A stretch of DNA of 64,000 nucleotides from Amoebophrya sp. A120 (taxonomy: Eukaryota > Protista > Dinoflagellata). This document shows positions 128-61,801 of the stretch, piece after piece. Where the stretch lies: contig CAJINV010000009.1 in the NCBI GenBank assembly GCA_905178155.1, positions 3,027,471-3,091,470 on the forward strand, in the 5' to 3' direction. Below the pieces are notes generated by a model that saw only the letters and a program-made list of their open reading frames with translations, was not told the origin of the DNA and made no database searches. Position 1 is the first letter of the stretch. Every line of letters starts with the position of its first letter. The position numbers were made by a program, and so were the translations under genes.

Positions 128-3100
128 TTGCGTCGTGCTTCGTTTTCACGGCGCAGTTGCTCTTTGTCGTGTCGGTTTCCGCTATCAAATGTAAAAATGT
201 CTGGGTCTGGAAGATTCCGAGATTTGTCATGCACATTTTGCATGACTCCTGATGTCTGTGATGCATGCCCTAGCATCAGAAATTTTTTGCGAGCTTTCTG
301 ATGCGTATCCAGCATGACAAATGCCCTCATCGTGTAGCACAAAATCGAATCCTCTTGTTAGTCATGCACCACAGATTTTCTTAGAATCCGAAGACAGCAT
401 CAGAAGTTGAATCCTTCCCGACCCAGACATTTTTACATTTGATATCCGCGGTGACAAAGCAAAAAGCGTTGCAGGTCGAGTATCGCCTCCTCAGCTGTTA
501 CTCTCCTAGCTGTTGCGTACCCGACAGCGTTTTTCATAGCAACCCAGCAAGAGAAAAGCGAGATGCGCTGCTCCGTTCGCATGACAAGTTTTGGACAGAT
601 TTCGATGTTATTCGAGGCATCTCAAATTTGTGATGCGAAGCTACATGAAAACTGGAAAAGTGACGCAGATTTTGCATGACAAACGTGTTGGCTACGTAGA
701 AGTTGAGAGCGTAGCACCTGAGGAAGCCATATCGAGTTTTTCGCACACCAGTCGAGACACCCATCGCACTATGCATTGCAAATATGTCTGGGTTTGGAAC
801 TCTGCAACTTGTGGTGCTAAATCTGAATATTGCAAAAATCTGTGCTGCATGATTACCAAATGCTGTCCACTTTTGATCAAGTTGAGAGGCAGTTTCTCAT
901 GCAGGGTAGGCATGAGAGGGATCTCGCGGAATCTGTCATGCTGGGTCCTCCATTGCAGATCATATGGGTCATGGAAAACCTACATGACAAGTCAAAGTCT
1001 AGCAGTTTTCCAGACCCAGACATATTTGTAGTTGATACGAACGTGATGTGCCCCGGCACGCGGCCGTACGTTCCGGTGGAGAGCAAATCATTTCCCGAGG
1101 CGATTTATGCAATTTGCAAGAGCAGTATCGTGCTGGTGCTCGTAGTAAATTGCATTTACAATTTTTTTCAACAAAACGACAAATCAAATTTGTAATGCGC
1201 TTTCAGGTCAGGAGCCGGATCTCGATCTGTCATGCTCATGCATGACTGCAATTACTCCACCGAGTACAACTTCTACACTCTTGCAATGCGTACGTCCTGC
1301 TCGACCAGGTGCAGACACTCGGAGTCGCGCAGCCTCAAATTTTGCACCTTATCAAATGCGAACATGTCTGGGTCTGGAAGAATGCAAGTTTGTCATGCTT
1401 GTCTCACATGACTCTCAAATCTGGCATGCACATTACCCAAGAGCCCCACTTTTCTGTCATGCAGCAACGCAGTTTGTCATGCAGCATAGGCAACACCTAG
1501 AAGCTCAGAAACTTGTCATGCTGAGCCAGCACTTGTGGTCTCCTCATGATACGCCACCCAGCATCACAAGTTTCCAGACCCAGACACTTTTGCAGTTGAT
1601 ACACCTGCGAGACCAGCAGCTCCTCACGGGGGCCGGGGAACCTGGCGAACCTATCCCACGAAAAAACTGTTTCACTGTGATGATTTTGCAAGATCTGCAT
1701 CACAAGTTTGCTACAAATGACAGAGAAAATTTGCCATGCGCGCTTCCTAAGGGAAAACACAGCTAAAAATCCAATGTCTTGCATGTGTAGCAAGACAAAT
1801 AGTTCTGTGTTACATTCTATGCATCACAAGTTCACAGTGAAACAGTTTTTTCTTGCGATAGAACCGGGAGTCAGAGTAATCGACAATGCCGTGTTATCCA
1901 GGGAAAAAACTGTGTTGGTGTAGGTCTCTTGGACGACCAGCATTACAAATTTACCCTGCACGAGAGAGAAAGCCTGTCATGCAATGCTAGTACGTGAAAA
2001 CACACATGAAAAGAGGACTTCATGGGTGTCTGGCATGACAAGTGTAACTGTTTTGCATTTTTTGCATCACAGACTTACACTTACACAGTTTTTTTCGTTG
2101 CATACGTGGATGACGGCGTTGGTGAAGTCGGTCGCTGCCAGAGCGTATCAAATGCAAAAATGACTGGGTCTGGGAGGATGGAACTTGTCATGCTAAATCT
2201 GCATCATGCAAAAATCTGTGTTGCATGATTACCACAAGTCGTCCAGTTTTGACCAAGTCGGGAGGGAGTTTCTCATGCACGATAGGCACGATAGAGATCG
2301 CACACAATCTGTCATGCTAGGTACTGCATTCCAGACCTCGTGGGTCATGGACAAGCTGCATGACAAACTTGCATTCTTCCAGACCCAGACACTTTTGCGT
2401 TTGCTAGAGCGGTAAACTGGTCACTGACGGTCGCCGCGAATTCCATTTCTAACTTCCCGGAGAAAGCGACCGAAACGGTACTCGTCGTGGTCGTGCTGGT
2501 TGTCATGGGAACAAACTTTTCGAACGAAGTGACTTGGTAGGCTGGCACCACGTATGCAGTGCAAATATGTCCTCTGGGTCTGGAAACCTGTGATGCTTAT
2601 TTGCTGCTGATTGCAACGCTTGCAATGGCAGCCAAGCATGACGAGTTTTTGAAACGGTTCTTTGAAACGCTTTCTGATGTCTAGCACGCATTACCACTTG
2701 CGTTTTTGCATGACTACAAAGGAAGTGGCTCTGCTGCTGCTCGTCACGCAACACAGATGTTCTAGGAATTATGCAAGACACGTATTACAAGTTCCACTTT
2801 TCCAGACCCAGACATATTTGCAATTGATACCACGTACTCAAAATGTCGCACCAGCCAGTCGTACATCCCGTTTGTTTCACTGTTCAGCGCTGCGGTGAAC
2901 ACCCCGGGCATCCTGAGCAAAAACGCCCCCACCCGAAAGTCAAGATGGTGATGGGGATTTTGCTACACAAATCAGCAAGTTTTGCGTGTTGCGCATGACA
3001 AGTGTAGTGCAGTCCTCTTTTGGTTTTGGGTAGTGAAACCGCATGACAAATCGGGTACCTAATCCTGATTCTAGCATGACAAGCTACCCGATAGCATTAG

Positions 3101-6100
3101 AAAATGGCCCTCATGGGACTGCGCATGAGAAACATTTTATTTTTAGGCATGCCAATTCGCATGACAAGTCGGGGGTGGGGAAGTTTTTACACAGGATACC
3201 GGGGGCCCCGGTGGCGGGTGCGGTCGACCAGATCTCCTTCAGTGCGTGCGGTTGGTCCCAATACACCCAGTTTTCCGGGGCCACGGTGAATTTCATATGG
3301 AAGCGTCAGGATTGAAATCGACAACAAAGTTGAAATAATATTAATTTCTCATGCATAACTTGCAAGGCATGAAGTGCCTCTCTTGCAGGGATGGCAAGCG
3401 AGGCCGACTGGCAGCCTGTTTCAGGTCTGCGATAGAGCTGCTAACGTAGCATGACAAAAGACGCCTTCTATCCCTAAGCAGCATGACAAACTGGATTCAG
3501 ATGGTGCCGAAATTTGTCATGCACCGCTTGAAAATTGGGCTGCCGACTGGTGTCGATTTTATGCATGACAAACTACCAGCCATGCTCCGGCTGCCGCCGG
3601 AGCGCAAGGCTGTTGGGCCGGGGCAAGACTGTGCGCCGATTGGACCACAACACCACGGGCCTGCGCACAACGCAACGTATTGGAGTCCTGCCGCCTGTTT
3701 GCGCCGCGCCGACCCGCAGGACCACTTGCGCGCCTCCCGCGCCTTTGGGCGCTCTGCGCAGGGAGCAGCTGCAAAGAACACCGGGGGCGAACAGAAGCCG
3801 CCCGGCGCGAGAGGGTAGCGCGAGGGGGTAGCGCGAGAGGGTAGCGCGAGAGGGTGGCGCGAGAGGGTGACGCGAGAGGGTGCGCGAGAGGGTGGCACGG
3901 AAAGACGCCGAACAAAACAAGTCCGTAAGGGCCTGCAGTTCGAGATATGGGTAGCGCCATGCGGATTCGCGCCTATTTCTTGCTGTTTTTACCTCCTCGC
4001 AGACCTCTCGCAGTCCCTCTTTTTGACCTCTTTTTGGGGTCCCCGCTAATACTCCGGCTATACTCGCGGGTAGAGGTCGACAGAGGTGGCCGAGAGGTGG
4101 CCAAGAGGGTCCGCGGGAGGTCGCCCCTTATTCGCGCAACCTCTCGGCACCTCTGTCCACCTCTCGCCTGCCCTCTTTTCTACCTCTCGGCACCCTCCGA
4201 GGCGCTTAGCGGCCCTAAAGGGCGAGCGGTTCGGCTGGCTATACTCGCGCCACCTCTCGCGCACCCTCTCGAACTGCCTCCCGCGCCACCTCTCCACCTC
4301 TGTCGACCTCTTTTTCACCTCTTTTGACCTCTTTTTTACCTCCCGGCCACCTCTCGTTCACCCTCTCTAGACCAATATTTTCGCATGAATATAATAGATA
4401 GTAATTTCAACTTTGACGATTTCAATTCTGACACTCCCATATTTCAGTCTCAACTCGTAGTACCAGTTTTCTTTGGCATCCGTCACCTGCGTCTGCGCCG
4501 CCTGTCTGTTCAGCGTGAGGCCCAAATCCTTGAACTGGTCCTGCCGCAAATTATCGTTGGTCCTCAAATCGGCAACGTTCCCCGAGGCTATGCATTGCAA
4601 ATATCGATCTGGTGTTTTGGATGGGTACGAGTCTATCATGCGTGTAGTCTCGTCACGTGACAACTCTTAGCTCTGTGATGCATGTTGAGCAGGAAAAGGG
4701 CCTCTTGCCTGTCATGCAAAAACGCAGTTTGCCATGCGAAAACGAAACACATAGTAGCTCAAAACCTTGTCATGCGTGGCTGCGTATTGCAGTGCGCTTA
4801 AGATTGATTCGCACCAGATTTGCATCACAACTTTCCAGACACCCAGACAAATTTGCGGTCGGTAGAGGCCGCGAGAGTGCAACACACCGGCTTCCCGTTC
4901 GCGCAGTACTTGCTTGCGTCATTCTCCTGCTGCCAACAACGAAAGGCGTCCGAAAATATGCAATACAAACTTCCCGTACGTGTACAAGATGCATAACAAA
5001 TTTCTCCAATTTGAAGTCTATACACTTGTCATGCTAAACCAGGACTGAAGCTAAGTTTTGTCATGCAGAAACACCATTTGTACGTTTACGGGACGACATT
5101 TACTGTGCATAGAAAAAACCTGCAACGCATGGCGCAGGGCGTTGTGCTATCCTTTGTAAAAACATCCCCACCCCAGAGTTGTAATGCAAATGCGCAATGA
5201 CAGGAACATTTGTAATGCGCATCCCCATGAGAGGTATTTCCAATCGTGATTTGGCATTTGTAATGCTGTAAACAGGATGAGAAATTGGCTTTCTCATGCG
5301 GCTTGCCTTGCTATGCGCCACTATACTACAGACGGAAACTTGTCATGCACAACTCCCAAAGCTTGCCGATTTGTCTAGGAGATTTCCCATCTTGACTCTG
5401 GTGTGGGGACGTTTTTACTCAGGATATGTGCAGGACTGAGTTGCCCAGGATTTCTCCGATCTTCGCGTCGTCGTCCACCTCCGCCCCGGTGAGGCCGCGG
5501 AACTGCACCAACACGGGGAGGTCCGCGGGGATGTGTTTTTGATAGCTAGTATCAAAAGGAAAAATCCCCCCTCCCCATATCGAAAACGAACTTTGTGCTG
5601 CTGTATTTGAGTACGCCTTGTATTGCTAGAAGGCCAAGAGCCGCGGTCGTGGCCTTGCTTGCAGGCAATTTGACATGCTGTTTCCCACTTCCAGCTGCCT
5701 CCTGTCATGCTGAAAAAGCAAGGCTTTCTCCCGCCCCCCAGCACTACAGTCCGCATCTTTTCCCTTCTAGCATGACAGAGCTGATTTGTGATCACAAATC
5801 TGCGTCACAGATTTCCGTTTTGATGTCGGGAGGGGGGATTTTTCTTCTTGATAGCTAGACCGCCAGAGCTCGTAGATCATCGCGTTCTTCGGCTTCTTCC
5901 CCCCCGTGACAGATATGGAAAGAAAAAAGTTTGTCACAGTCACTCACTAGCTTGGAGGTTTTGCATTACAAATTTTTTCATCACAGCTTTGCCGTGTATT
6001 GCAAAAACACTAAGGGAAATCCCGCATGCAGTTTGGCTGTGAAGATGCATGTTTACGCATGACAGGCATTTTTTGTATTGCAAAAATGCCCATAAGTGAT

Positions 6101-9100
6101 CGCGACGAACTTTTTTCTCTTGATAGCAGACGTTACGACTCTACTGCCACAATAACTCCACCAGGAATTCCATTTTTCACTGCAAGCCGGGTTAGTGTTT
6201 ATCTTCGAGTAGCGAACCTTTTCATTGTATCCTCAGTAAAAACGTCCCCACACCAGAGTCAAGATGGGAAATTTTTTTTATTTTTTTTTGCCTGCGGGAG
6301 GGGATTTCAGTTTCAGATGCGTTTTCCGGTCTATTTCCGCCGGGGGTTACGCCGTGTACAGCAGGTCGACACTGCCAGGAAACTCGATGTGCGCGCCGCA
6401 TTGGTCCATACAAATCAAAACCCAAAACCCTAAACCCTTCAGTTTCAGTTTCATGGAGCGGCCCCGTGCTGGAACACTTCTGATGGTGGACGTGAGCACG
6501 AGATTTGCGGCTTCGCGCCGCGACAACCAAATGGGGGTCTCTTCCCCCCCCCCTCCGCTTTCGAAAATCCCGTTTGTGCGTGCATACTGCAAAAGGTCGA
6601 CATCGGTGGTCGACAGGAAATCGAGATCAAGCTCGAATCGAAGGCACCGGCCACAAAAGAAGATAAGACGAAAATCATCGGGGAGGATCGGAAGACCGCA
6701 ATTTGTGATGCCTGTGGCTGCTAAAACCCGAACGGCATGGGGGTAGCTACCACGCCGAGCGCGCGGATTCGTTTTCCTTTACGTGTCGAGCCGGTAGCAG
6801 CGGCACACGCCACATCTCTTCCATCTTGCAGCGTCCGGACGGATGTGTTGGGGGGCATAGCAGTGCGGGGGGATACTAATGTACTGCGGCTTTGCAGGGC
6901 CGGAATTTGTCATGCAAAATTTGTTTTTCGGATAGTGCAAACGAACTTTTTTACTAGAGCTAACAAGTCACCGCGTCACGCCTAGGTGACACCTACCGGC
7001 TATTTAGTAACTGCGCCGCCTGAATCGGTTTGCTATGTACTGACCCGGTAGCAGCGGGCGGAAGTTCTTTTTCTAGGAAACTACACCGGCAGCTTTGTGC
7101 AGATACCGCAGATAGCCAGCAGGGCGCCGCTAGTAAAACCACTAAATTTTAACTATTTTGTCATGCAAAATTGGATAAGATGGAACTTGTAGGGCAAGAG
7201 CTGCGGAACCAACCGGGGCGAAATCTCGACTATCAGCAGCGGCGAGTTATATGTCGTCGCGGTCGAGGATGTCTTGCACGGGATCGGCAGTATTCGAGGC
7301 TGAAAATCGGCGTGTGGGGTGGAGGAACTTGAAGATGGATTTCCTTTCTTGGGAGACGCGGCAGGCTCGGGTGTACTCGGCGGAGAAAGGGTCTGCAAGA
7401 TGTCGAAGTACAACAGCACACCGGGGAAGTGCAGCAACAGCGTATTTGTCTGATCGTCCGTTGCGGGGGGCAGCTGGCTCCCGTGCAGGTCCGGTGGTGT
7501 GGATTGTACAGCTGCTGCACCGGCCCGCAAGTGCCGGATTGCTGGCGAGAAGAGGTAAAGGGACAGCATGGCGAGCCCCCAAACGCGGCCCGGCTCCGGT
7601 CCGGGCAAGTAAAACTCCGGTTGCTCCCAGGGCGGCAGTGTGGACCCGATACGCCGGGAGGTCTGGTAGCGACGGAAACTGGCGCCAGGTGGGGATTCCC
7701 GTTCTGCGAATGCATAAACAGGGCTAGCAGCTGGTTTGGCGGTGTTGGTGCCCTGTACACCGGTTTTCTGGCCAGTAGCCGCGATTCGCGCAGAACAGAC
7801 CGAAATTCTTTTTGTAGCTCCGTATTCACCGGCCACCGCGATGCACTTGTCTCCGGTGAAACTGGCAGCTGCCGCTTCGGGGTCACCTCCACGTCATCAG
7901 GATCCGGTCGGGCCGGAGTACTATGGATCGAAAAACCGAACGGGGAAATTCATATTTGAAATCAAGGTGAGGAAAAGACCGAAAACACCGCCGGCGAGCA
8001 AGCTCTTCCGCGGTGCTTTTAGTTTTACGGTGCTATAGTGTGATTTTGTTTTGGTATTTGCTTTTATGGTCCAACCCGGACCTGAAATCAAAACCCGGAC
8101 CCGAAGCCGAGACTCGGACCCGAAACCGAAACCCGTACTCGAACCGTGGGCCCGAAATCCGGACCCGAAACTTCGGACACTACCTAGAAGAGGGCATACC
8201 GTCCTAAGTGCAACTACGTTTTCGTACCGGGAGAGAGCGACAAAGACAGATCCAAACGCAGGCGTACAGCCGGGGGAAAAGAAGGATGCCTCTATACACG
8301 GCTACCCGCATGCAAAAATAAGGGAAAAGGAAAAGTGTATTCACGCAAAACGGTTGGCACCCACCTTGAGTATGTCTTCCTACTGATAAGCGGAGACGAA
8401 GATAGGTAGAATTCTTGCCGCTAGAATTCTACCTTTGGTATTTATTTCTTAGTCCTGACATACATACCTGATTAGCAACCAAGAGATCGCACTTCGCCGA
8501 AGGCTAGTGCCACGGTTGTAGCATACATATCTGCGCATACATGTCATACAAGAAACAGTAAAGGACTGATTAAAACAAATACCAATCTCAGTCTCCCACA
8601 TACCTGTAGGGCGCGGTTGCCTCACCTTCTGGAAATCTGCGGTTGAGTCAAGATGGGAAATCTGCTAGACAAATCAACCACTTTTGTTTGTTTGGCATGA
8701 CATCAAGTTTGTCCCCGTATTGTCATCCTGTTTAGCTAGTTCCGAAGCATCACAGATCTAGCGCATCATGCTGATTCTAGCATCACAAATTCCGAAACAC
8801 GACTAGAAAATGGCTCTCATTGGGCTCCGCATCATCATCATCATCATCATCATGTAGTGGACACCCGCACCCAGCGCCACAGGTCAAGGATCCCCTCCCC
8901 GGGGGGTGGGCGAGGAAGCACATTCGGCGACCTCCGCATGAGAAACTTTTTGGGCATGCAGATGTGCATGACAACTCTGGAGAGGGGACGTTTCTACTCA
9001 GAATACATTGTACCACGAGTAAACCTATCAAGTGCAAAAATGTCTGGGTCTGGAAGATTTTGAGATTTGTCATGCCTGTCTAGCATGACCAAAAAGTTTG

Positions 9101-11395: not shown

Positions 11396-12099
11396 TCTTT
11401 ATTTTGCTTTTGTTCTTTCCCCCGCTACAGCAAAGCAGGGCAAGAAGTCGCATACTTTCAGAAATCTATTCTCAAGGCTACCCGCCGCTCCTTGTACTTT
11501 ATTTCGGCTGTACTGCTACGTACCAGTATGCAGGAAGAACTCATCGAGTAAAACCCTCTATCGCTGCTCGTTGTCGTTCAAGCTGCGCACCGGGAATAAT
11601 TGAAATCATGGTGACCTGCTCGGCTGTGTTTGCTGCAGGACCTCCCGCTTGTTCACGCCCCCTCCTCTCAAGGTTATTTGGTCTACAATTCAATATTCCA
11701 AAAGAAACGAAAACTGAAAAAGCCCCAGCCAAATTTTCCAAATTCTTACCCGGCGAACCATTTTGCATGATTCATCCGCTTTGTTGAGGCTCCTTGTGGA
11801 GTTCTTGTACTGGTTGTATCATTCTATTTCATTTTCACTTGTGTAAACTACAGAAACAGAACCACTGTCAACATTCCCCGATAATCGACGTCCAGTGTGG
11901 TCGTGTTTGCTTTCATCAAGTACACCGGTGAAGTTCTTTAGCTTTATTTTTTCGTTATAGACAACTTCAACCCGCCGCCCCCTGTTCGTTTTTGAGATGA
12001 CCCTCCTCACGCCTAATATTCCACCGCAAGAAAAATGATCCGCCTGTTGCTGTTTCCTAGCCAAAACTCGGCAAGAACTTCTGGCGTTCATGCAACACT

Positions 12100-46376: not shown

Positions 46377-48364
46377 CCTCTTCGCCCTTTCCTCTTCGCC
46401 CTTCTTGGGTGCTTTTTCTCCTTCTCTTTGGCACCTCCGTCCCGGCTTCCACCCTCCTCCCCTTCCCACTTGCTGCCTGCCCTTCCCCCCCCTCCGGCTT
46501 CCCCCTTTCTGCGCTGCGGCCCCCCACCTCCCCCGCTCGCTCCCTCCCCCTTTGCCTCCTTTCCCACTCACGCCCGCCCCCTGCTCTAGAGTCTGTGGTC
46601 CTGGCTACAGAAAGCAACGCGGCTGCGTTCGATTACAAATACTGCGGTCACACGGATAATAGCTAGTATGAAATTAATATAAATACGTCAAGGATGCAAT
46701 ATGGTAGATCTTTCTTGTAAAGGTAGCTTGATATGACGTCGAGTGTGCTCAAATAAAAATACATGTCATGGCGTCGCAAGATACATCTTGGGGAAGTTCT
46801 TTCGCTAAGTAAGTATCGACATAAATAATCCAAATCGCCGTCTCTTGTCAAGACCACACGTCCTAGCAGGTAGAAACAAAGTTCTCGCAAAAAAAAACTT
46901 TGGTTCGTTATGTTGATGCTTTGAGTCAGGAGCTTCTTCACAGAATGGTTTTACAATGCCTCGATAAAGATGCCGAAGCTTATTTTTCAAAAGGACTGAA
47001 CGGAATTTTTTCTTACACTCGAAATCGAATCATGTTGCACAAAACTAGGGCGGTAAAATCGACGATGCTACTTACTAAGCTCAGTCAGAAGCTGAAGCAG
47101 AACTTCACGCAGATCGTGCGCTGATAGTAGACTAGAACCTTCGCTACCCGCTCGGGAGCACTGTATCTGGTCCCCTTTTTACAGGGGTGGTCGTGGTAGA
47201 TCTCGTTCCATGGTAAGTAACACACCGTTCGTCACAGATTGCTAACGCTTTTGTTCTGAAGCAGAACGAAGACCACTTTCTCTTTCATCTACAGCTTGTT
47301 GGCGACGCAAAAATTGTACTTATGTAGAGATCCTTCTTCTTGCAATATCAACCGTACAACTACAACTACTTACCCGGACCTACCACTATGATCGTTCCGC
47401 CACCAAGCAGATCACGTTTGCTGTGCTGTCTCTCCTCAAGAGATGAGAAGTTGTACCATTCCGCAATGCTAAATTTGGCGCATTCTTTCACCTCACCCGC
47501 CACCGTGCCTGGCGCGCCAAGCGCAAAAAACTTTTTCGCTAATGTTCATTTTTGATCAGTACATGACACGGAAAATTCATGAGGTCAGGGTCTCTGCTCC
47601 TCTCTTTTGTCTCTTAGCATCATAAACTGGAAGACCACGATGATGATCCTAGGTCTTCCTATGCACGACCTCCGGGAAATCGGAAATCGTTGTAGTAGCT
47701 TCTGCTACAGGTTGTACTATTCTGTAGAGCTTCAAGAAACCGAAACTCATTGATACAAAAATTCAATAGGAGTACGCTTGTTCAGATTTTCTACCACAGC
47801 GATGATCCTTAGTAGGTTTTAATTTTTCGATTCGGGGGTAGAACGACTGGACTTCTTTGCAACATCAAGATGTACTAAGTAGTGTTGAAATTTTTATGTT
47901 GATGAATACGTACAAGTTTAGAGAGAGAGAAACTGTTGGCGCGTAAAAATATTAACCTCTAAAAATTCATAAATTGCGTGCGTATCATGCTACTTTCTTC
48001 ACCTTCTCTATCCATTGAAATGGGGTACTTAGACAAGGGGAAGTGTTGCTTTAAGCAGACTGACACTTCAGTTTTGATTGATTACAATTTAACGGTCGCG
48101 TACTATCGTAGAATTTAGGCACAAGCACAACCTGCGGAATGGTATGCTGCAATGGTGCCTGCAACTTCGTGTCACCGCGAGTAGTTGCTAACTTCCTTCA
48201 ATGATACTCGGGCTTCTGTGACAATCTGCAACTGGCTTTTGTTTTTCTTTTTCGCACTATCGTCGGTAAACTTTACTCCCCTTGATGCCCTGCGAAGGAC
48301 CACGATCCCATAGACGTGAACTTCTATGGGATCCATAGGTCGGTAAAATTCACCTCCCTATCCC

Positions 48365-51300: not shown

Positions 51301-54300
51301 TTTCTCATGCGGAATACGCACCAGAAAGCCCTCCCAAAATCTGTGATGCTAGGCCATGCATTACAGGCATCACGTGTCATGCAAAATGTGCATGACAAAC
51401 CTGGCACTCTTCCAGACCCAGACACTTTTGCATTTGATACGCTCATGTTTTTCACCATAGCCTGTTGGAAGCGCGACAGTTTTCGCCTTCCCCCGTCCCC
51501 AACGGACGACTTCCTGGCGAATTTGCCACTGGCACTCTGCGCCGGCGTCGGGGCACCGGCTGCCGGGGCGGGTGTGGAAGCCGCCGGCGCGGGGGTAGAC
51601 GCGGCCGCCGCGGGAGCTGCTGCGGGAGCACTGCCCATCGCTTGCACGCTGCAGATGTTGGTCTCGTCGCCCGTAACATTGATTTCCTTGTTCTCTTCCA
51701 CAAAGTATGAACCGCAAAAGTATTTTACTAGTAGTAATTGCAATACTTACAAATGAGCTCAGCATGACAAATGGAATTTGTCATGCTGTTTGGAATTGGG
51801 ATAGAGATTTGTAACGCATGGCTGCGATTACTACGAGTACGATACTTTTGCACAGGATACAAAGTACTCCTTCACAACTCCATCCACAGGCGAAGTGATC
51901 TCAATGGTTGCCTTGTCGGATTCGACCTCGCAAATCAGCTCGTCGGCCTTCACCGAGTCGCCAATCTGCTATCGTATGGAAAAACGTCCCCACACCATAG
52001 TCGAGATGGGGAATCGGCTAGACAAATCCACAAGTTTTGGCTGTTTTATTGCCACTGTACTCGTACTGTAGTGCTGTTTGAGGTAATTCAGCAGCATCAC
52101 AGATCTAGTATATCATGCTGATTGGAGCATGGAAAATTCCAAAACACGACTAGAAGAAAATGCTTCTCATGGGGCTCCGCATGAGAAGCATTTTGACCAT
52201 GCAGATTTGCAGGGGTGGGGACGGTTTTAAATACGATATCTGCTTCACAAATTTCACGTAAACACCCTCCCCGTCCATCGGTGCCTGCACCATTTCCAAT
52301 TTTCCGGTTGCCGCGGCGGCAGAAGGCGCGGCCGCCGGCGTAGCGGCTGGCGCGGCAGCGGCGGGAGCCTAGAGAGTAAGACGTTTGGATTCGTAAAAGG
52401 ACAATCCAGACATTGCCGAATGGCATAAAGTTCAAGTATGCAATACGTAAAAGAAGTGCTTTGAATAAAATCTGTGCCACAAAATATTGGAATTGTCCTG
52501 TGTTAAAAAAAATCATAAGTACCGCGCCCGCCGGCTTAACCGAGCAGATCTTGGTCTCGTCCCCCGTGACATCAAATGCAAAAATATCTGGGTCTGGAAA
52601 CTTGTGATGCAAGTCAGCCAATAATTAGCCTACTGCAATGCGCCGCCAAGCATGGCAAGTTTTTTCGTGCTTCTGTGCTTCGTATTCCGCATGAGAAACT
52701 GCGTTTTTGCATGACAGGCAAGAGGTGCTCTTTGCGGCCACGCAATACAGAGCTCAGAGTCATGCCAGACTAGCATGACAAAGCCCGAAATCATCCAACC
52801 CCAGACATTTTTGCAGTTGTTACGTGACATCCATTTCCTTCTGCTCTGCCACGAAAATTTCTTCGATCACCCCATTAATCGGACTTGTGATCTTATCACA
52901 AGAAAAAAGCGTTACAGTTACACATTTGTTGTAACTTCAGCAACACAAATTTTCTCTGCATCAGAGGAAAAAACTTGCAATGCACAGGCCATAGTGGAAA
53001 ACACGTATGAAATGAAGCTCGGAAGCATTTCTGGCATGACAGAGCTTGTCTGTAGTGCTGAGCTCGCAACACAATGTGTATTAAGTGTGACACTTTTTTT
53101 TCATGATAGATCTCGATGGTAGCTTTATCCGACTCCACCTCGGCGATGATCTCGTCGGCCTTCACGCTGTCGTATCCTGTGTAAAAACGTCCCCACCCTA
53201 GAGTTGCAATGCAAATCTGCATGCCAAAAGAGTCTCTCATGCGGAGCCCCACGAGAACGCTTTCTAGTCGTGCTTTGGCGTTTGTGGTGCTAGAATCAGC
53301 ATGATATGCTGGATCTGTGTTGCTGCTGAACTAGCTAAACAGGAAAACACCACGAGGGCAAACTCGTCATGCGAAACAGCCAAAGCTGGCCGATTTGTCT
53401 AGCAGATTTCCCATCTTGACTCTGTTGTGGGAACATTCTTATTCAGGATACGTCACCCACCTTCTTCTGAAAGGAGATGTAGACGCCTTCGCCATCCATC
53501 GGTGCAAACACCGTCTCCGTCGCCCCACCGCTGGCGCCTGACGCCGGGGCGGCCGAGCCCGCGGCCGGCGCCGCGGCGCGGGACTTGACGCGCTTGATCA
53601 TGGAGAGATCCGGGACGCCCTCGATAACTTTATCAACTGCAAAAATGTCTCCTGGGTCTGGAAACTTGTGATGCGAAAATATGAATGATGGAAACAATTC
53701 CGGATGCAGCCCAGCATGACAACTTTCCAGAGCGCTTTCGGATAGGAACTCCGCATGAGAAACTGCGTTTTCGCATGAAAAAAGAAGCTGCGGCTTTTGT
53801 TGGTATATGCAATACAGATTTCTTAGCAATGGAACGCTAGCATTGCAAGTTCCACTCTTCCAGACCCAGACATATTTGCAATCCATAAACTTGCCGGTAA
53901 AACAGCGTGTTGTAGATGTCCTTCTCCTGGATCAACGGGTCGCCCAGCCCGTAGGGTACATAGGCGTTTTGGATGGTGCACTCACTGAAAAACAGGTCGT
54001 CCGGGTACTTGATTCTGCGCCGGTATGGACTGTAAATGTGTCTGGGTCTGGAAGAATGCAAGTTTATCATGCTTGTCTCACATGCCCCTCGAATCTGTAA
54101 TGCAGGAGCAGGAAAAAAAGCCTATTGCCTGCCATGGAAAAATGCAGTTTGCCATGCGGAAAGCGAAACATATACATAGGAGCTCAAAAACTTGTCATGC
54201 GTAGCTACGTATTGCAGTCGTGTGCCCACCATTCACAAACTGGCATCACAAGTTTCCAGACCCAGACATATATTTGCATTTGATAGCCGGATGCTGGACA

Positions 54301-57300
54301 CCACCGGGGACATAAGCGCGGAGTTCGGGTTCGGGTCCACCACAATCACCTCCGTTGCCACGTATGCATTGCAAATATGTCTGGGTCTGGAAGGTTGGAA
54401 CTTGTAACGCAGGTTCTCCATGACCCATGAGGTCTGGAATGCGGGACCTAGCATGACAGAGTCTGTGAGGTCTCTGACACTGACTCTGTCATGCCTCTCC
54501 TGCATGAGAAACTCCCTCCACCCAACTTGGTCGAAAGTGGGCAGCCTTTGGCACTCATGCAACACAGATTTCTGCATGATTCGGACTTAGCATGACAAGT
54601 TGCAATCCTCCAGACCCAGACATTTTTGCATTTGATACCACGCCCTTGGTCGCAAGGTCATCCAGGTAATTGACCTAGTTTATTTGGAGTTTTCGGTAAG
54701 CTGCATACGCTTTTTTTGCTATTGCTATCGCCAGCAACGGGATTATTTGTCTTGCTCTGTTTACATGAGAGGTTCTTGCGCTTCTATTCTACAAATGTGC
54801 ATCACAAGTTTTTCGCTCAAAATCCATCTTATCTATCAGTACTCCAAACCATTACCAGAGCATTCGGTGCCCGATTGTAGTTCAACACGATGAGCTCGCA
54901 GTTCAGGTTCTCTTGCGATTATGCAACACAAATCCACTGTCTGGATCTGACTTTCTGATGCTGGAACTGAATTCAAAAATAAAAGCACCTGTAGTAATCA
55001 ATGTGCGAATTATAATGGACCTGTGGATAATTTCAATTTGTCATGCCAAGCCTCCCAGACAGTAAATACATGATTCGCATTCTTTCTTGCATAGCATCAA
55101 GACCTTCGCGATCATTTTGCAGTCGGGACCCCAGCCGATCATGATCAGCTTCTTTCCGTTCATCGGCTCCAGCGTACCGGGCACCTGCACCTTAAAGTAG
55201 TCGTTCACTTGCATCCCCGTGGCCTGCTTGTGCTCCGGCAGCGGGAGTATCGGGTGCAGCATGCCGAAGCTCATGGTGGGCGCGTATCCTGAGCAAAAAC
55301 GTCCCCGCCCCAGAGTTGTCATGCTAAACAAAATGCGACGCGCTTTTCTCATGCGAAGCCCCATGAGAAGCATTTTCTAGTCGCGTTGTGGAATTTGTGA
55401 TGCTAGAATCAGCATGATAGTCTAGATCTGTGACGCTGCTGAACTACCTAAACAGGATCACACTACGAGGAGAAACCTGTCATGCGAAACAACCACAGCT
55501 GGTTGATTTGTCTAGCAGATTTCCCATCTTGACTCTGGTGTGGGGACGTTTTTACTCAGGATAGCGCGACCCCCAAAACCATGCGCCCCATGTCGTGGAG
55601 CCGGACCATCTCCTGCATGCAGTTCGACAACACGTTCATGTCGATCGGCAGACACATCACAGTGTTGGCGTCGCCGGCAAAACTGCTGTACTCCGGCGTG
55701 TTGTGGTGCTCCCCGACGCGGGCCAGGAACATATCCCGCTCCGTCTCCTCGTTTGTTTCGGCGTCGATAACTTTCTCCTTCTCACGGAAAGCCAAGGAAC
55801 CGCCGTCGAAGATGTAGATGTGGTTCGCGTGCTCTATGCATTGCAAATACGTTTCGGTCTGGACGAGCACACTGGTTTGTCATGCATTTTCTGAAATAGA
55901 TACATGCTCTGGAATGCACGCGAAGCATTACAGGTTTATTTGCGAACGCCTTTTCATGCCTATCCTGCATGAGAAACTCGCCATTTGTGTGGCAAAAAGT
56001 GGGCAGCGTTTCTTGGCACTCATGCAATACAGGTTTTTCTCTGCTCGAGATTTAGCATCACAAGCTGCAGCACTCTTCCAGACCCAGACTTGATATTTGC
56101 ATGGGATATGCTCGCCAGCATCGCAATACCGGTAGGCGGCGTACTTGATGTGATCGCGTGCGTGCTCGTTAAAGATGGTGTGGGGACCTGTGGTGAAAAG
56201 CAATAAAAGGTTTTTCTCCTTTACAGAAACCTCCGCGCGGCGATCCTTCGAATGACAAAAATGGTGCCCGAACTGCGATCTAGAAGTAGAACTAGAAGCA
56301 CGTCGAGCTATGTATAATGCAAGTTCAACATTATTAATTTCACACGTTGACCGTAGAACAACACTATCACTATGCTTTCTTCTAATCATACCTTTCACAA
56401 ACACCCGGTTCCCGGATGGCAGCACCGATCTGTACGCTGCCCCAACCTGCACGACCTGCGCTTCCTGCGGCATGAAACCAACAAATTTGTCCGCGTGCTC
56501 GGGGCCGATAGCCTTATGGAAGCGTCGGGATCGAAATCAACGAAATCGAAATAATTTGTGATGCATAAAATCGATACCAGTTGACGCCTCAGCTTCCAAA
56601 TGGCGCATGACAAATTTCGGGAGCACCGAAATCCAGTCTGTCATGCCGTTTGGGCAAAGAAGACTACGCCTGTCGTGCTGCTCTGGCAGCGCATCGCGTT
56701 CCCCGTAACAGGCTTGCGCATCGGTCTCATTTGCCTGCTCCCCAGCACAGGCGCAGGCCTTGCGTGCCCTCCAGCTCCATTTTATGCATTACAGATTTTT
56801 CGATTTTGTCGATTTCGATCCTGACACTCCCATAAGCCTGGAGCTCGCCATACACGCCGCCGCGGGTGTCGTGCTGCCCTTTGTGGTGGTTTTCTTGGTG
56901 CACGTAGTATCAAGAAGAAAAATCCCCCCTCCCCATATCAAAACGAAACTTCTCATGCTGGATTTGCGTACACACATCAGCCCTGTCGTGCAGTAGAGGA
57001 CTGCAGGCCCACATCAAGCCTGAGTGGGAGAGGTCTTGGCCTAGGCGCTCAGCATGACAAAAGTCCATGCTGTACTAGGCCCGACAGCATCACATCCCGC
57101 CGGTGTAGTCCGGGGGCCTTCTGGGTTCGCCTTCTTGCAAGACAGACGCGATGTGTGGCCACAAATCAGCATCACAAATTTCCGAAAATGTACCTTTTTG
57201 GTATGGGAAGGGGGGGATTTTTCCTTTTGATACGTAGCGGACCATCTTGCCCTCTTTGTCCGCAATGTCCATCTGATTCTGAATCGCCTTGCTGTAGATC

Positions 57301-60300
57301 TCGGACCCCATACCTTTGGTAATCGTATATAATTTTGTCGCATTTTCATCACGACCCGATAAATTATTACGTTACACAAATTTCATCAAAGCTCGACTCG
57401 TCACGAAGACGCCGATCAGGGTCGAAGATATTAGTCCTTTTGCTTTTTCCCTGCTTCGAAGCATCCATAATATTAAGTAAGTACCTGCGAACTTTTTCTG
57501 TCCCTTGCCGAGCAGATAGTTGATGTCCAAATCCACCGCCTCGCCCCCCTCTTCCTTCAACACGGTGGTGGACCCCGGCTGCGAAAGTTCGCGCACCTGC
57601 TCGCGGCGTATGCATTGCAAACATGTCTGGGCGGTCTAGGAAGTTGGCATGCTAATCCCCCCCATGAGAAACGAACCTCAGTACCTAGCCAAGCATGACA
57701 ACTTGTTTGGAGGCTTGCGAAGTGCGTATGGAGCATGAGAAGTTGTGGCCTTGCAAGACAAACCTTCTGGTTCTGGCTCTCATCTTCTTCATGCATCACA
57801 GATTTTTGCTTCTTCATTTAAACTGCGCATATACAGGTTCACCCTCTACTTCCGGACCCAGACATATTTGCATTGCATACGGCTCATCACCTTGCAGCCT
57901 CGGATGGCGTGCTCGACGTGGCCCACGATGGAATCTTCCGCCTGCTGAATCTCTATCAAAATGAAAAATCCCCACTCCCCATATCAAAATGGAAATTTCT
58001 GATGCTGATTTGCGTACACACTTGTCTTGCAGTACGGCACTCCGGCCAGATCCGCAGCCTAGGTGGGAGCGCTCAGGTCTAGCTGTTCAGCATTGCAAAC
58101 GGCTACCCTCTAGGACCAACAGCATGCCAAATCGCTTCACAATTGGGCGGATGCCTCTGCACTTGTCTTCTTGCAAGACAAACCTGCTTTGTGGTCACAA
58201 ATCAGCAATACAAATTTTCGGAAACATATCTTTTCAATATGAGGAGGGGGGATGCTTCCTCTCAATAATCTTCGCCACCAGTTCCGACCCAGACATACCC
58301 TTCGGGGCGGCGCACGCCAGCTGGTAGATCATGACGTTCTTGTACTTTTCAAACTGGTCCAACAGCATCTCCTCCGGCGCGGGGTTCTGGTCGCTTGCGT
58401 GGCCCCCCGGACGGAACGGCCACCGGGAAATCACGTAGGTTGGCCTCCCGGTCTCCAGCACCTGGTCGCAGGCTTTTTTCATGGCGTCAATGCCGCTGTT
58501 CATGTCGTGCGCCCAGGTCTCGAATCCCTTGTCGATCAGATTACTCCACAATTCAAACCGCTTGTATCCCAACAAAAAAGTGCTACAGTTAGTACACATT
58601 TGTTCTTCTTCTTGCAACTTCAGCAACACAAACTTGCTCTGCATTACAGAGAAAACTTGCAATGCAGAGATCCTGAGGGACAACACGTATGAAACGAGGC
58701 TCACAAGCCTTTCCGGCATGATGTCGTGCGCGTTCCGCAACACTGTATACACTTTTTTCTTTGCATAGCTCGTGGATGCGCTTGACTCCGTACTCTCCGA
58801 GGTCGCCGTACTTCCCTCCGTAGTCAAAACGGGCGGGGTATCAAGGTGAAAAAAGCCCCCACCCCATACTCAGAAGACAATTTGTGTTGCTGGATTCCTG
58901 TACACAAATAGGCTTTGTATTGCAGCAAGAGCTTGTAGGGATATCATAAACCCATTTGGGTACGCATCCGGCTGGCAGCTGCGCATGAGAAACAAGTCTT
59001 GCATAGGCGAAAACGCATGACAGACTGGCTGCACCATGCGCGACATTATGGGTGCCGTTTGCATTGTACGCAAGACAAAGTCGATTTGTGGTCACAAATC
59101 AGCATCACAAACTCCTTTTCGATATGGGGAGGGGAGATTTTTCCTCACAATACGGAGATGGCCGAGTTATTGGCGTTGATCAGGAAAATCATCGGCATTT
59201 TGTAGCCCTGCTCCCGTGCCTCCGCGAAGTGCTGCAAGGCGTGCATGGCGCCGTCCGTAAAGAACCCCGTGTCGCCCGTGTTCAGAATCGTCACTGGGGC
59301 CTCCATGTTCTCCTTTCCCATGCAGTACAGCTTATCAAGTGCAAACATGTTGGGTCTGGAAAAGTGCAAACTTCTCATGCATATTTTCCATACCCCATGA
59401 GGTTTGGAATGCAGGATCTAGCATGACAGGTTCTGCGACGTCTCTTCTATCATGCCTATCCTGCATGACAAACTGCCTCTAAACTTGTTCAAAAGTGGAC
59501 AGCTTTTGGTAGTCATGCAACACAAATTTTTGTACGATCCAGCCTTAGCATGACAAGTTCGCGTCCTCCCAGACCCAGACATATTTCCCATGCAGTACAG
59601 CTTGGCGGCCTGCAACTCCGTGTCCCGGCCCAAATCCGTGGACCCCGCTCCGATGTGGCTGTCGCACGGGTAGAAGGTGCGGACCATCGGGTTGAAAATT
59701 AGCGGGTCCTTGTTGTCCTGCCCGGACCAGTACTGGAGGTAAAACTGCTTCGCCACCAGTTCGTAGACCTTCTCCGGGCTGTACCCCATCCGGAAGAGCT
59801 CCTCGGAGATGATAGGGGTTATGGAAGTGCCAGACTCGAAATTGACAAAGTCGAAAAATTCTTTGTCGTGCATAAAATCGATACCAGTTGGAGCCTCAGT
59901 TTGTAACAGTGGCGCATGACAAATTTCGGAGCACCCAAATCCAGTCTGTCATGCTGTTTGGGCAAAGAAGACTGCGCCTGTTATGCTACTCTGGCAGCAC
60001 ATTGCATACCCCTAAACAGGCTCACAATCGGTCTCATTTGCCTGCTCCGCAATACAGGCCTCCAGTGCCCTACATTTTACGCACCACAAATTTTTCGACT
60101 TTGTCGATTTCGATCCTGACACATTCATAGGGGTGCGGTAGTAGGTAATAATTTTCATGACCTCGTCGATTTTCTGCGCCGAGGGTTTCTTGGCCATCAA
60201 GTGGTTGCCCACACCGGCCCACATATGCGAATACACCGCAGAACCGAACAAAGGAATATGAATTGCAAAAATGTGTGGGTCTGGAACGTTGGAACTTGTG

Positions 60301-61801
60301 ATGCTATCTTTGGACTGTGAAAAAAAATTATATTGCATGACCAGCAAGAGGAGTACAGTTTGTGCTACGCTGGGAGGGGATTCCTCATGCGGAATAGGCA
60401 TCAGGAAGCCCGCGCAAAATCTCTGATGCTAGGGCATGCATCACAGACCTCATGGGCCACGCAAAATATGCATGACAAACTCCTGTAATCTTCCAGACCC
60501 AGACATTTTTGCAATCCATAAGGAAGGCCGAAACACGACTTGTCAAAATGGGTGTGCACCGCCTTCGGGAAAATCAGGTTCGCGAGTAGGGAATGCTGTT
60601 TTAGTAGATTTTCATTTTTTGTTCCACCATTTCATGCGGATCGATGATGATGATGAACTTAGCTTGCTGACAGAAGTCAGGATGTTTGTCATGCACGAGG
60701 ACTACAACACACAGCTATAAGAAAATCGCCAAACATCAAATTCGGTACCAAATAAGCATCCTTTTCCCCCTCCGACAGGAGTGGAAGGCTCCCGTTCCCG
60801 GGCAGACTATCCATTTTGCCGATCTCATGCTTGTATGCAATGCAAAAGCATCGTACTAGTATATATAAATTGCAATACAAATTAGTCCTGCATTACAAAT
60901 TAAATTTGTAATGCTGATTTATCTTGAGAAACAGATTTGGAATGCATAAGTGCGATTACTACGAGCACTACGATACTTTTGCACAGGATAGCTTGATCTG
61001 CTCCAGCGACTCGCTGTAGAGACCCACTATGGGAAGAAAAAAGTGTTACAGTGACGCCTTGTGGTCTTGCAAAACCGGCGACACAGACAACCTTTCTCAT
61101 GCAGGAAATGCTTTGGAGCCTCGTTTCCTTCCTGTTTTCCCTTATAACTTGTGCATTGCAAGTTTTCTGCTCTGTTATGCGGAGAAAACTTGTGATGCTG
61201 AAGTTGCAGCAAGGGTGGAACTGTAACACTTTCTTCGTGGGATACCCACCGGCTTTCGGATATTCTTGATAAAGTCCGCCTTGGAAAGTGTTGGACAGTA
61301 TGAAAAGGAAAAAAAAGTTCGTGTCTTGATCAGAAAATCTTCCTCTTTGAACGCATTTGCATAATACTTCTTTTCAACATACACGACTAATTACACCAAG
61401 GGCCCGGACAAAACACGCACAGGAGTGGTCATACTCAATCATAATCTTACTTGTTAGCCATGCATTCTCACAGCATGAATTTTCGGTGGCAAGACACGTG
61501 CGAAAATAAATGATTTCGTCTTGCATAAGTGCTCAAAAGTTTCCAGTTCCGGTTTCAAATCGAAGCCGGAAAAGTGACGCACTTGCACTTGTGGTCTACC
61601 GTGGCCGCTTCTCTGGAGACCCTCCACGCGGCGGCCATTAATATGCCCTGGAACAAACAGTCTGGTCGTGCTCGACGAACTGAAGCCGGCGACTGAAGTT
61701 GCGGCAGCGGGAGAAAAACTGCGGAGCCTGCTAGAACTTTCTCTTTGCTGGAGTGCAGCGCGCCGGGCAAAGCCGGCGGTCACTACCGTGGTGCTTGCCA
61801 T
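48365..61801 (-). CDS. 2-oxoacid dehydrogenase E1alpha-E1beta-(lipoyl)2-E2 fusion protein, probably mitochondrion-targeted; about 30 introners plus several GT-AG introns
   Basis: Spliced motifs in order: Ser/Arg/Ala-rich N-terminus; TPP motif GDTG...NANNSAIS; FRPGGHASD; HQENH...RGGVY; two EVESDKATIEITSP lipoyl domains with Ala/Pro linkers; LSRFQQAMVKNM; NIGCAIDV...LRTAVIKDA; FTVSSLG; ILGVGR; LTLTVCHATLTG; stop at 48365-48367. Confidence 0.85.
50398..50815 (-). other. Canonical GT-AG intron containing an introner (50559-50810)
   Basis: GAAG|gtata ... aacag|GTGTT joins to ...KSEGVSPVIV. Confidence 0.65.
52369..52522 (-). other. Canonical GT-AG intron
   Basis: GCG|gtactt ... ctctag|GCT joins in frame to ...PAGAAPAAA. 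Confidence 0.7.
56188..56391 (-). other. Canonical GT-AG intron
   Basis: AAAG|gtatga ... cacag|GTCCC joins to ...VFVKGPHTIF. Confidence 0.75.
57314..57484 (-). other. Canonical GT-AG intron
   Basis: GCAG|gtactt ... caaag|GTATG joins to ...KKFAGMGSEIY. Confidence 0.75.

Follow-up and report, generated by a model that had tools for sequence, protein, structure and literature searches.

Introner elements of Amoebophrya sp. A120 may be removed from RNA at a fixed distance from their inverted-repeat ends

In Amoebophrya sp. A120, one transcript contig of a conserved enzyme gene lacks all 26 of the transposon-like elements that interrupt the corresponding DNA. The data favor a cut made in RNA at a fixed distance from the element ends over excision from DNA or homology-guided skipping, because the elements lie in random orientation, their junctions show no base preference, the cut follows the third or fourth base of the flanking repeat, and an element with no repeat left is also removed in the public protein model. 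We put at about even the chance that a dedicated system, probably not the spliceosome, recognizes the terminal inverted repeats (TIRs) of these introners in RNA, cuts at a set distance from those ends, and rejoins the exons. The fuller proposal falls a little short of an even chance: that A120 has a second, spliceosome-free mRNA splicing machine, which takes out transposon introns in their tens of thousands, recognizing them by the TIR ends alone, is blind to orientation and junction, cuts with a fixed stagger (1–2 nt before and 3–4 nt after the TIR), and re-joins the exons.

The elements and their host gene

An earlier, sequence-only reading had counted about 80 TAT...ATA elements with 5-bp direct repeats in the window (the whole stretch of 64,000 nt that was analyzed). 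We find 84, of which 83 were catalogued and one is the decayed element 61299–61527 (Table 1). An end-profile search requiring an exact 5-nt repeat yielded 57 of the catalogued elements, and inspection of the unpaired ends by eye supplied the other 26. Together the 83 make up 40% of the window, with a median length of 265 nt, and 72 of them have TAT...ATA termini. The inverted repeat consists of TAT, seven less conserved bases, and at least three A, both in end logos (n = 350) and in a window-only profile. Its positions 1–3 and 11–13 are near-invariant at both ends, which is partly built into the end profile used; the bases directly preceding the terminal ATA differ widely from family to family. 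The elements recur in families across the window and related loci, and three of them (26069–26714, 26835–27480, and 27601–28246) are identical copies in a tandem triplication. No Rfam family was found in the window. The elements belong to the Amoebophrya A120 introner elements: TIR inserts that carry no coding sequence and are flanked by a 5-bp target duplication.

When ends were paired blind to the repeat, 361 of 486 pairs (63 from the window, the remainder from related loci) had an exact 5-nt repeat, 3 had one of 4 nt, and none had one of 6 nt, so the 5-nt repeat exceeds chance. The 25 repeat-blind pairs with at most 2/5 bases alike were left out of the evidence, as several were mis-paired with an inner TIR-like stretch and none had RNA. 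The proposed flanking 5-bp repeats are real, with the correction that they are perfect in 61 of 81 unique elements and imperfect in the other 20.

The best-documented host gene encodes a fused 2-oxoacid dehydrogenase, with two Biotin_lipoyl domains and a 2-oxoacid_dh domain found by Pfam; its E1-like part has no Pfam hit and is labeled from sequence. An exon is 100% identical to a protein labeled Amoebophrya sp. A120 (70% for the A25 protein), and the product, conserved with homologs, matches A120 protein P0002 exactly over residues 213–1333 (1121 residues) and 1–235. The gene holds 32 elements and 6 GT-AG introns. That elements sit in coding sequence holds for the 31 located between exons but fails for 50559–50810, which lies inside a GT-AG intron. 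As the sequence-only reading had claimed, ordinary GT-AG introns occur beside the elements in one gene, five of them within the RNA-anchored stretch 47756–59811. Two motifs said to be restored by deleting an element plus one 5-mer were reproduced: LTVCHATLTG at 48755–49039, where a homolog ends ...LCHATLTGVEG, and DKATIEITSP at 52894–53108. Elsewhere in the gene the public model P0002 is wrong, reading into an unrecognized element at its C-terminus; in practice, other public A120 gene models may do the same.

Table 1. Elements, host gene, and ordinary introns in the window
Feature	Positions	Strand	Basis or remark
28 elements (183..14530)	183-444, 481-731, 770-1037, 1350-1601, 1652-1860, 1895-2104, 2146-2406, 2553-2829, 2909-3198, 4589-4864, 4957-5111, 5148-5426, 5550-5853, 5914-6125, 6228-9005, 9026-9284, 9364-9628, 9681-9946, 9999-10248, 10288-10440, 10446-11035, 12189-12450, 12503-12780, 12831-13044, 13132-13333, 13515-13768, 13934-14268, 14322-14530		
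19 elements (26069..35880)	26069-26714, 26835-27480, 27601-28246, 29044-29274, 29314-29624, 29652-29916, 29963-30244, 30335-30595, 30932-31253, 31291-31517, 31632-31910, 32024-32237, 32307-32569, 32684-32999, 33430-33997, 34092-34415, 34479-34743, 34802-35080, 35613-35880		sequence only
5 elements (43179..45466)	43179-43430, 43765-43973, 44058-44315, 44385-44708, 45248-45466		sequence only
31 elements (48382..61244)	48382-48702, 48755-49039, 49142-49402, 49450-49616, 49701-49979, 50052-50268, 50559-50810 (intronic), 50865-51135, 51178-51439, 51706-51859, 51970-52238, 52570-52822, 52894-53108, 53173-53450, 53631-53887, 54024-54285, 54363-54637, 54920-55093, 55285-55563, 55835-56108, 56515-56834, 56908-57232, 57609-57879, 57954-58267, 58565-58767, 58839-59152, 59333-59597, 59820-60129, 60257-60520, 60834-60990, 61028-61244		
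Element, repeat copies differ at bases 1 and 5	53173..53450		transcript piece starts 53452; S948 of P0002
Element, copies share only last 2/5 repeat bases	54920..55093		transcript piece starts 55094, no differences; M789 of P0002
Element with transcript junction seen directly	55285..55563		pieces 55094-55279 and 55564-55829 adjacent in X7 contig
Element, one TIR tip replaced by copy of opposite exon flank	59333..59597		removed, interval residual 0
Decayed element, 0/5 repeat bases alike	61299..61527		public protein model P0002
Fused 2-oxoacid dehydrogenase gene (E1-like part, two lipoyl domains, E2 catalytic domain)	47756..61801	-	transcript contig, P0002, Pfam
GT-AG intron, element 50559-50810 at its donor end	50398..50815	-	transcript contig and P0002
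GT-AG intron, 154 nt	52369..52522	-	transcript contig and P0002
GT-AG intron, 181 nt	54675..54855	-	transcript contig and P0002
GT-AG intron, 204 nt	56188..56391	-	transcript contig and P0002
GT-AG intron, 171 nt	57314..57484	-	transcript contig and P0002
GT-AG intron, 153 nt	60596..60748	-	fits P0002

Loss from transcripts and the position of the cut

Subtracting the 26 elements (with 5 nt each) and five GT-AG introns from 47756–59811 leaves 4033 nt, which is the length of the transcript contig, and the interval residuals against the transcript offsets are either 0 or equal to GT-AG introns. The GT-AG introns are missing from the contig as well, and its set, X7, has zero depth at 46400–47401, so it behaves as cDNA; X7 was classed as RNA by an automatic guess, not by its record. 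At 55285–55563, the transcript skips 284 nt, the 279 nt of the element plus 5. The removed element 59333–59597 has a 19-nt direct repeat (59314–59332 and 59584–59602). Element-plus-5 joints were also present at six elements in 183..14530 (starting at 2553, 2909, 4957, 5148, 5550, and 13132), each in a single contig of depth 3.9–5, with four flagged for unclear sequence between the pieces. These joints and the 26 elements bear out the claim that element plus 5 nt is lost precisely, in either orientation and without GT-AG. Retention would break the reading frame in 347 of 350 elements. Where RNA contigs exist, we saw no element retention, no use of cryptic GT-AG sites, and no untranscribed pseudogenes. 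Among the pieces and joints listed, none covered the gene across 183–444, most of 1–14700 had no exon cover, and no exon-length pieces were seen there in contig sets X4–X6. The raw RNA runs X9 and X10 gave 10 and 127 matching reads, almost all of them partial and seemingly derived from copies of the elements at other sites, so that they carry no information on splicing.

Relative to the gene, element families lie randomly. The four largest are oriented 39:38, 15:18, 14:8, and 9:12, and three families are present in both orientations inside the RNA-anchored dehydrogenase gene. The elements 183–444 and 34479–34743, described earlier as one subfamily in opposite orientations within same-strand genes, are indeed 83% alike when one is reversed versus 68% forward, and coding model calls place both genes on the minus strand.

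The junctions are similarly featureless. With every register allowed, a GT-AG pair can be placed in 6 of 81 window elements and in none of the 26 in the RNA-anchored gene, where GC-AG is possible in one. Across 350 elements, GT-AG is possible in 16, against 12.9 ± 3.4 expected by chance, in agreement with the earlier observation that the 5-mers have no GT/AG consensus. The repeat bases match phase-matched exon composition and thus show no preference: G was the first donor base in 89 cases (83.0 expected), no purine preference followed the cut (n = 350), and self-complementary repeats were neither depleted nor enriched (61 and 66 observed, 68.0 and 66.2 expected).

Mismatched repeats reveal which copy's bases survive, and thereby the position of the cut. 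Bases 1–3 came from the upstream copy in all four RNA cases (elements starting at 53173, 54920, 57954, and 58565), and base 5 came from the downstream copy in all four RNA cases (53173, 13132, 5914, and 13934). At 54920–55093, retention of upstream bases 1–3 means a cut after base 3 or later; at 53173–53450, the downstream base 5 means a cut after base 4 or earlier. The cut thus lies after base 3 or 4 in the direction of the transcript, 1–2 nt before the first UAU and 3–4 nt after the last AUA. P0002 is reproduced only with one of these two cuts. At 61299–61527 it requires removal of exactly 234 nt (229 + 5), again cut after base 3 or 4; just two of the removals tried there reproduce it, and the evidence is the public model, which is wrong elsewhere in this gene.

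The repeat itself looks dispensable and appears to drift at about the neutral rate, because only 2/5 bases are alike at 54920 and 0/5 at 61299, and the mismatch is 4.4% per site versus 5.6% for half the nearest-neighbor divergence. In 17 of 350 repeats no identical run exceeds 2 nt. Base 4 was considered as a mark for the cut, being invariant in the window (0/24 mismatches), but this did not replicate in 297 other elements, where bases 1–5 had 21, 17, 10, 13, and 15 mismatches (chi-square P = 0.34). AT-ward mutation gave no usable signal for telling which repeat copy is intronic.

Candidate routes of removal

In the mechanism that we propose, the elements would have been spread by a DDE transposase, and their removal would act on RNA rather than DNA. 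The TIR would present UAU-N7-AAA ... UUU-N7-AUA in either orientation, the repeat would be an insertion scar only, and the 5-nt cut would restore the reading frame. Most tentatively, an endonuclease and a ligase might release linear or circular RNA instead of a lariat. That U1 snRNA was not detected in A120 (PMC7789003) also speaks for this mechanism. No transposase was found, six window frames and three L067 frames giving no Pfam hit; two of seven long TIR-bounded stretches have frames of 120 or more codons. No end-to-start joint, as circular RNA would give, was among the 15 listed in the 1–14700 set (8 more are unlisted) or the 15 listed elsewhere, and contigs cannot show absence.

The sequence-only reading had proposed symmetry-based excision by either structure-guided RNA splicing or ciliate-like DNA excision. 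A second removal route is indeed the likeliest reading, but guidance by structure is unproven. In 98% of 60 sampled pre-mRNA contexts, pairing of the ends is predicted, and an end-to-end stem is predicted at 55285–55563 (z = −7.8), but G-U versus A-C mismatches in the stems (292:292 and 129:120) gave no sign that pairing is selected for on the transcribed strand. Orientation-dependent conservation reached P < 0.05 in 9 of 2985 alignment columns, a comparison of limited power. An internal motif, GCAT-N-A[CG]AA, was rejected as a branch point, as it is conserved equally on both strands.

A spliceosome rewired to work without U1 could also make a fixed-distance cut in RNA. In this reading, an adapter that binds the TIR would define both ends, the cut would follow base 4, giving a donor N-UAU, and the branch point would be an A in the terminal AUA, roughly 6 nt ahead of the acceptor. 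Short fixed branch-to-acceptor distances occur in other protists and yeasts. We consider this reading, branch point included, unlikely but worth serious attention. A120 keeps nearly all spliceosomal proteins together with U2, U4, U5, and U6, whereas U1 snRNA was not detected (PMC7789003), and both the A120 authors and a review favor a new subunit. With a cut after base 4, N-TAT would also match positions +2 to +4 of the GTAT/GTAC donors in the dehydrogenase gene. However, neither donor G (89 vs. 83.0) nor GT-AG is enriched although strict GT-AG introns exist in the same cell, no branch-like motif shows strand-specific conservation, and the bases before the terminal ATA vary widely among families.

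Excision from DNA, like that of ciliate internal eliminated sequences (IESs), would have to occur in a transcriptionally active stage, with the assembly representing the unexcised form. All sequence features tested are strand-symmetric, as a DNA enzyme predicts, and the DNA evidence comes from one DNA-like run. In that evidence, 7 of 8 listed DNA-like X1 pieces cross element borders with no differences at a depth of 38–47, the single-copy level given by an element-free piece (47.4), and none of 15 listed joints is an empty site (2311 further joints are unlisted, contigs drop rare forms, and this is one sample). A mirror-symmetric cut would split the outcomes, but in each of the five junctions where the copies differ at base 2 or 3, the copy kept is the one upstream in transcript direction (only two of these junctions would be informative for a cut after base 3), so the cut follows the direction of the transcript. 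No separate germline nucleus is known in Amoebophrya, and each parasite lineage must pass the elements to its spores. We therefore judge the IES-like proposal improbable.

Hairpins combined with short direct repeats are a classic setting for template switching. RNA polymerase might jump between repeats over a looped-out element, or reverse transcriptase might do so in library making. Most single-mismatch junctions fit a crossover in the longer identical run equally well, and excised RNA was not seen. Homology-guided skipping nevertheless has little chance of being the answer, given removal with two shared bases (54920, RNA) or none (61299, public model) and repeats that drift near-neutrally, 17 of 350 lacking an identical run above 2 nt. 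A library artifact would moreover leave a conserved enzyme gene unreadable, with the frame broken in 347/350 and a contig free of all 26 elements. Finally, that ribosomes hop between matching repeat codons in mRNA that retains the elements, or that the genes are dead, is hardly credible: the 5-nt repeat always contains one whole in-frame codon, but the elements are absent from transcript contigs, the shared codon is non-synonymous in 6 of 8 imperfect repeats, and the protein is conserved with homologs.

The removal of more than half of the introns of Amoebophrya A120 has been an open question since 2021. A fixed cut, a dispensable repeat, and the lack of bias in orientation restrict the possible mechanisms and let the termini of the excised RNA be predicted exactly. 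If removal is non-spliceosomal, it would be a genome-wide alternative to the spliceosome with a parallel in euglenids alone. Transposons could then land at any coding position with little penalty, and the system could provide a portable, sequence-blind intron.

Comparison with known systems

The A120 elements, their 5-bp repeats, and the question of their removal are already published (Farhat et al. 2021, PMC7789003); the sequence-only reading had mentioned introners with inverted and direct repeats in Amoebophrya and an unsettled removal mechanism. In the available portion of that paper, the introners are about 240 nt long and supported by RNA-seq, with an inverted repeat that starts with TAT, followed by seven variable bases and at least three A; the direct repeats are 3–5 nt (5 bp in the Fig. 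S19 legend). The window elements are the same in kind, and the strain label on the encoded protein matches. The same portion places the inverted repeat 1–5 nt from the splice site, leaves the border position and the removal mechanism open, and does not mention orientation, whereas here the repeat is 5 nt long and lies outside the TIR, the cut follows base 3 or 4, the elements are randomly oriented, and the repeat is seemingly dispensable. The cut position, the random orientation, the seemingly dispensable and near-neutrally drifting repeat, and the junction without base preference appear to be new relative to the literature searched.

Introners of Aureococcus, Micromonas, and Polarella and the non-canonical introns of Fritillaria share a MITE-like origin, a TIR with target-site duplication (TSD), and the loss of one TSD copy, but they carry or co-opt splice dinucleotides, none of which is enriched in the window elements. 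Spliceosomal introners of the U2 type likewise differ in having GT/GC-AG borders (possible GT-AG here in 16/350 vs. 12.9). Ciliate IESs, too, are short, derive from transposons, interrupt coding sequence, have symmetric ends, and require exact removal. They are removed from DNA, have TA at both ends and leave one TA, and need a separate germline; in contrast, the DNA-like run keeps the inserts studied here, and the scar kept is an arbitrary 5-mer. IS3EU/GingerRoot elements (PMC10045372) share the TA..TA termini but have a 6-bp TSD, compared with 5 in the window elements (361 of 486 pairs with 5 nt, 0 with 6 nt); Ginger2 has a TSD of 4–5 bp. An integrase-like TIR element has been reported in A120 (PMC12130899).

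The nonconventional introns of euglenids (PMC12501133, PMC11282704) share with the window elements the lack of GT-AG, paired ends, and coexistence with spliceosomal introns, as well as cut sites at set spacers from the paired motif, longer on the 3' side (PMC12501133). Their signature, 5'-N3CDG ... CH'GN5-6|R, in which the next exon begins with a purine (PMC12501133), differs from the end motif and the absence of purine preference here. Circular excised RNA has been reported for the euglenid introns (PMC11282704).

Elements, host gene and passengers

A search for repeat-flanked inverted ends recovered the TIR elements and their direct repeats as the sequence-only reading had described them. 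Demanding an exact 5-nt repeat, an end profile found 57 elements in the window, and visual inspection added 26 more whose repeats are imperfect or whose ends have decayed. The resulting 83 elements (81 unique; three form a tandem triplication) make up 40% of the window. Scanning metagenome contigs for the pattern gave 136 related loci, of which 133 (824 kb in all, with overlaps) were kept; these share the element families of the window at identities reaching 98.7% and have no overlap with its exons. Repeat-blind pairing of left and right ends gave 486 unique pairs, with an exact repeat of 5 nt in 361, 4 nt in 3 and 6 nt in none. Strand at the related loci was assigned with a coding model, which called 59 of 63 window elements minus and left four uncalled. 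Of the 486 pairs, 422 could be assigned a strand and had no more than two mismatches in the repeat; 350 of these also had an open, coding-like frame.

P0002, a public protein labelled Amoebophrya sp. A120, is 100% identical to one exon of the window, and an A25 protein is 70% identical to the same exon. The accessible text of Farhat et al. 2021 (PMC7789003) describes A120 introner elements whose inverted repeat is TAT, seven variable bases and then three or more A, with repeats of 3-5 nt and 29,850 repeated introns; it reports that U1 was not detected in A120 and leaves the border position and removal mechanism open. Because the host is A120 and this description matches, we identify the window elements with these introners: they are real, expressed and previously described for the strain.

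P0002 is the model of a gene at 47756-61801 (-), whose product joins an E1-like part, a pair of lipoyl domains and an E2 catalytic domain in one chain; its homolog P0006 (1260 aa) has the same Pfam domains. No catalogued element lies in 14536-26068 or 35886-43178, where there are a few unpaired ends (e.g. 40596, 41006); by eye, the frames at 23701 and 36627 look like paralogs. Several elements are unusual (see table). The 19-nt repeat and the ambiguity in element 5550-5853 are possibly repair or conversion scars, and the back-to-back pair looks as if the second element had inserted at the target duplication of the first. The insert of about 315-325 nt recurs in three related loci (L004, L027, L129) and is a putative SINE-like passenger targeting elements. 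The 2.4-kb insert has a duplication and T-rich end as in a non-LTR retrotransposon, and its two frames had no Pfam match. In related locus L067, 476-2934 holds an element whose 2.2-kb insert contains a 415-codon frame, again with no Pfam match; the flanks look coding, so ends 2.4 kb apart may still get joined.

Coordinates of notable features in the window and related loci
Feature	Position	Strand	Details
Long frame	19458-22973	-	no Pfam match
Long frame	23701-25167	-	no Pfam match
Long frame	36627-38624	-	no Pfam match
Long frame	40988-42424	-	no Pfam match
GC-rich tandem repeats	17098-18909
Run of N	45707-46376		670 N
84th element	61299-61527		in the P0002 gene; its two 5-mers share no base
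19-nt repeat	59314-59332 and 59584-59602		opposite exon flank copied over one TIR tip
Element 5550-5853	5539-5549 with 5848-5858		11 bases could belong to either side of the joint
Element with 2.4-kb insert	6228-9005		17-nt duplication (6256, 8645), T-rich end
Insert of ~315-325 nt	inside elements at 26069-28246 and 33430-33997		11- and 20-nt duplications
Two elements back to back	10288-11035		one common 5-mer, 10441-10445
Element in L038	10329-10608		8-nt flanking repeat, not 5
Element in L089	76-330		7-nt flanking repeat, not 5

Removal from transcripts

One contig of 4947 nt (depth 166.5) from X7, a run whose RNA status is a guess, matches the window in exon pieces with zero differences. 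In favor of an RNA origin, it lacks the GT-AG introns too, and X7 depth is zero at 46400-47401. In two intervals between its seven listed pieces, the missing length is exactly the sum of element plus 5 nt; four others leave residuals of 375, 360, 154 and 161 nt. We assigned these residuals to five GT-AG introns plus one additional element. Since 1, 3, 430 and 12 candidates fit on length and frame alone, total length and P0002 served as an external check. After these removals, 4033 nt remain against 4033 expected, with an open frame of 1140 residues, and the spliced translation is identical to P0002 at residues 213-1333. Within 1-14700, where the X7 contigs have a depth of 3.9-5, six additional joints among the best 15 of 23 each equal an element plus 5 nt (282, 295, 160, 284, 309 and 207 nt); none of the remaining nine, mostly long or repeat-to-repeat, is an element junction. 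Thus, both the proposed exact loss of element plus 5 nt and the coexistence of GT-AG introns in one gene held up. Retention would disrupt the frame in 347 of the 350 coding elements. Past residue 1333, P0002 runs into element 48755-49039 (its residues 1334-1363) and ends early; X7 offsets and the P0006 C-terminus support removal of this element and a conserved C-terminus.

Orientation and candidate mechanisms

Removal in either orientation, also anticipated, is borne out by three families present both ways within the P0002 gene (49142 vs 51178; 49701 vs 55285; 54024 vs 53631). Orientation bias was absent in all 17 families of four or more members (largest 39:38). Since the ends are TIRs, RNA of either orientation starts UAU-N7-AAA and ends UUU-N7-AUA, which is enough to explain direction blindness. 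Among the 350 coding elements, repeats have the base composition of exons, and 16 could be read as GT-AG in one register or another, where random exon 5-mers would give 12.9 ± 3.4, in line with the lack of consensus noted from sequence.

We give about even odds to removal by a dedicated cut-and-join system acting on RNA. The argument that decides this is indirect: strict GT-AG introns are kept in the same cell, yet surviving insertions drift neither to a donor G nor to GT-AG. A rewired spliceosome, unlikely but still worth considering, would fit the resemblance of N-TAT to the GTA donors of the P0002 gene; that same lack of pull among surviving insertions argues against it. Rfam scans of the window and Pfam scans of the window and L067 frames found no removal enzyme, transposase or excised RNA.

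Ciliate-IES-like DNA excision, an option in the sequence-only reading, is improbable. Strand asymmetry was absent from every conservation test, which suits it, and stem G-U and A-C mismatches stood at 292:292 and 129:120; these tests neither show nor exclude RNA pairing, because variation that predates the insertions dilutes them. In X1, a DNA-like run, however, seven of eight listed pieces cross element borders at depth 38-47, against 47.4 for the element-free piece, and no empty-site joint occurs among the best 15 of 2326 (a single sample, possibly the assembly's source, and rare forms do not show in its contigs). Moreover, in 5/5 junctions where base 2 or 3 is mismatched, the cut followed transcript direction.

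The internal motif GCAT-N-A[CG]AA occurs 11 times per kb in elements and 0.3 per kb in exons, with equal conservation on both strands. All families carry an inverted pair of it about 45 nt from each end, and its GCA is 1-5% diverged against a 14% background, both strands alike; it is likely a protein-binding site. Pairing is predicted for TIR positions 11-20 in 98% of 60 sampled contexts and for positions 1-3 in 55%; complementarity at positions 4, 5 and 7 is just 45-58%. Given this weak pairing, it may be the sequence of the terminal UAU/AUA that is read.

Position of the cut and published introners

Imperfect repeats reveal which copy the transcript keeps. Judged from RNA piece ends, the base 5 that is kept belongs to the downstream copy at 53173, 13132, 5914 and 13934 (one end each for the last two), and bases 1-3 belong to the upstream one at 53173, 54920, 57954 and 58565. 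P0002 fits all seven non-synonymous mismatch cases only with a cut after base 3 or 4. At 61299-61527, this public model is reproduced only if 234 nt are removed with the cut following base 3 or 4; it is presumably transcript-based there, since the borders are non-canonical. Base 4 showed zero mismatches in the window, but this did not replicate in 297 other elements, so the cut stays at base 3 or 4. Insertions are unevenly spread over codon phases: in 147 of 350, repeat base 1 is the third base of a codon, against 105 and 98 for the other two positions (P = 0.002); a cut after base 4 would turn these 147 into phase-0 introns.

Homology-guided skipping between repeats is no more probable than DNA excision, as the public model implies removal at 61299-61527 between 5-mers with no shared base. 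The per-site mismatch rate of the repeats is 4.4%, compared with 5.6% for half of nearest-neighbor divergence (326 elements). Together, the kept-copy pattern, the 61299 case and this rate point to a ruler set from the TIR rather than homology between repeats. Ribosome hopping or dead genes are scarcely credible.

Our literature search, with subscription journals mostly outside it, found no published report of random introner orientation or a resolved removal mechanism. Compared with the published introners, random orientation, a fixed cut at base 3-4 and a seemingly dispensable repeat are new constraints, though the figures of PMC7789003 may already show orientation or register; they make the removal question testable with existing data.
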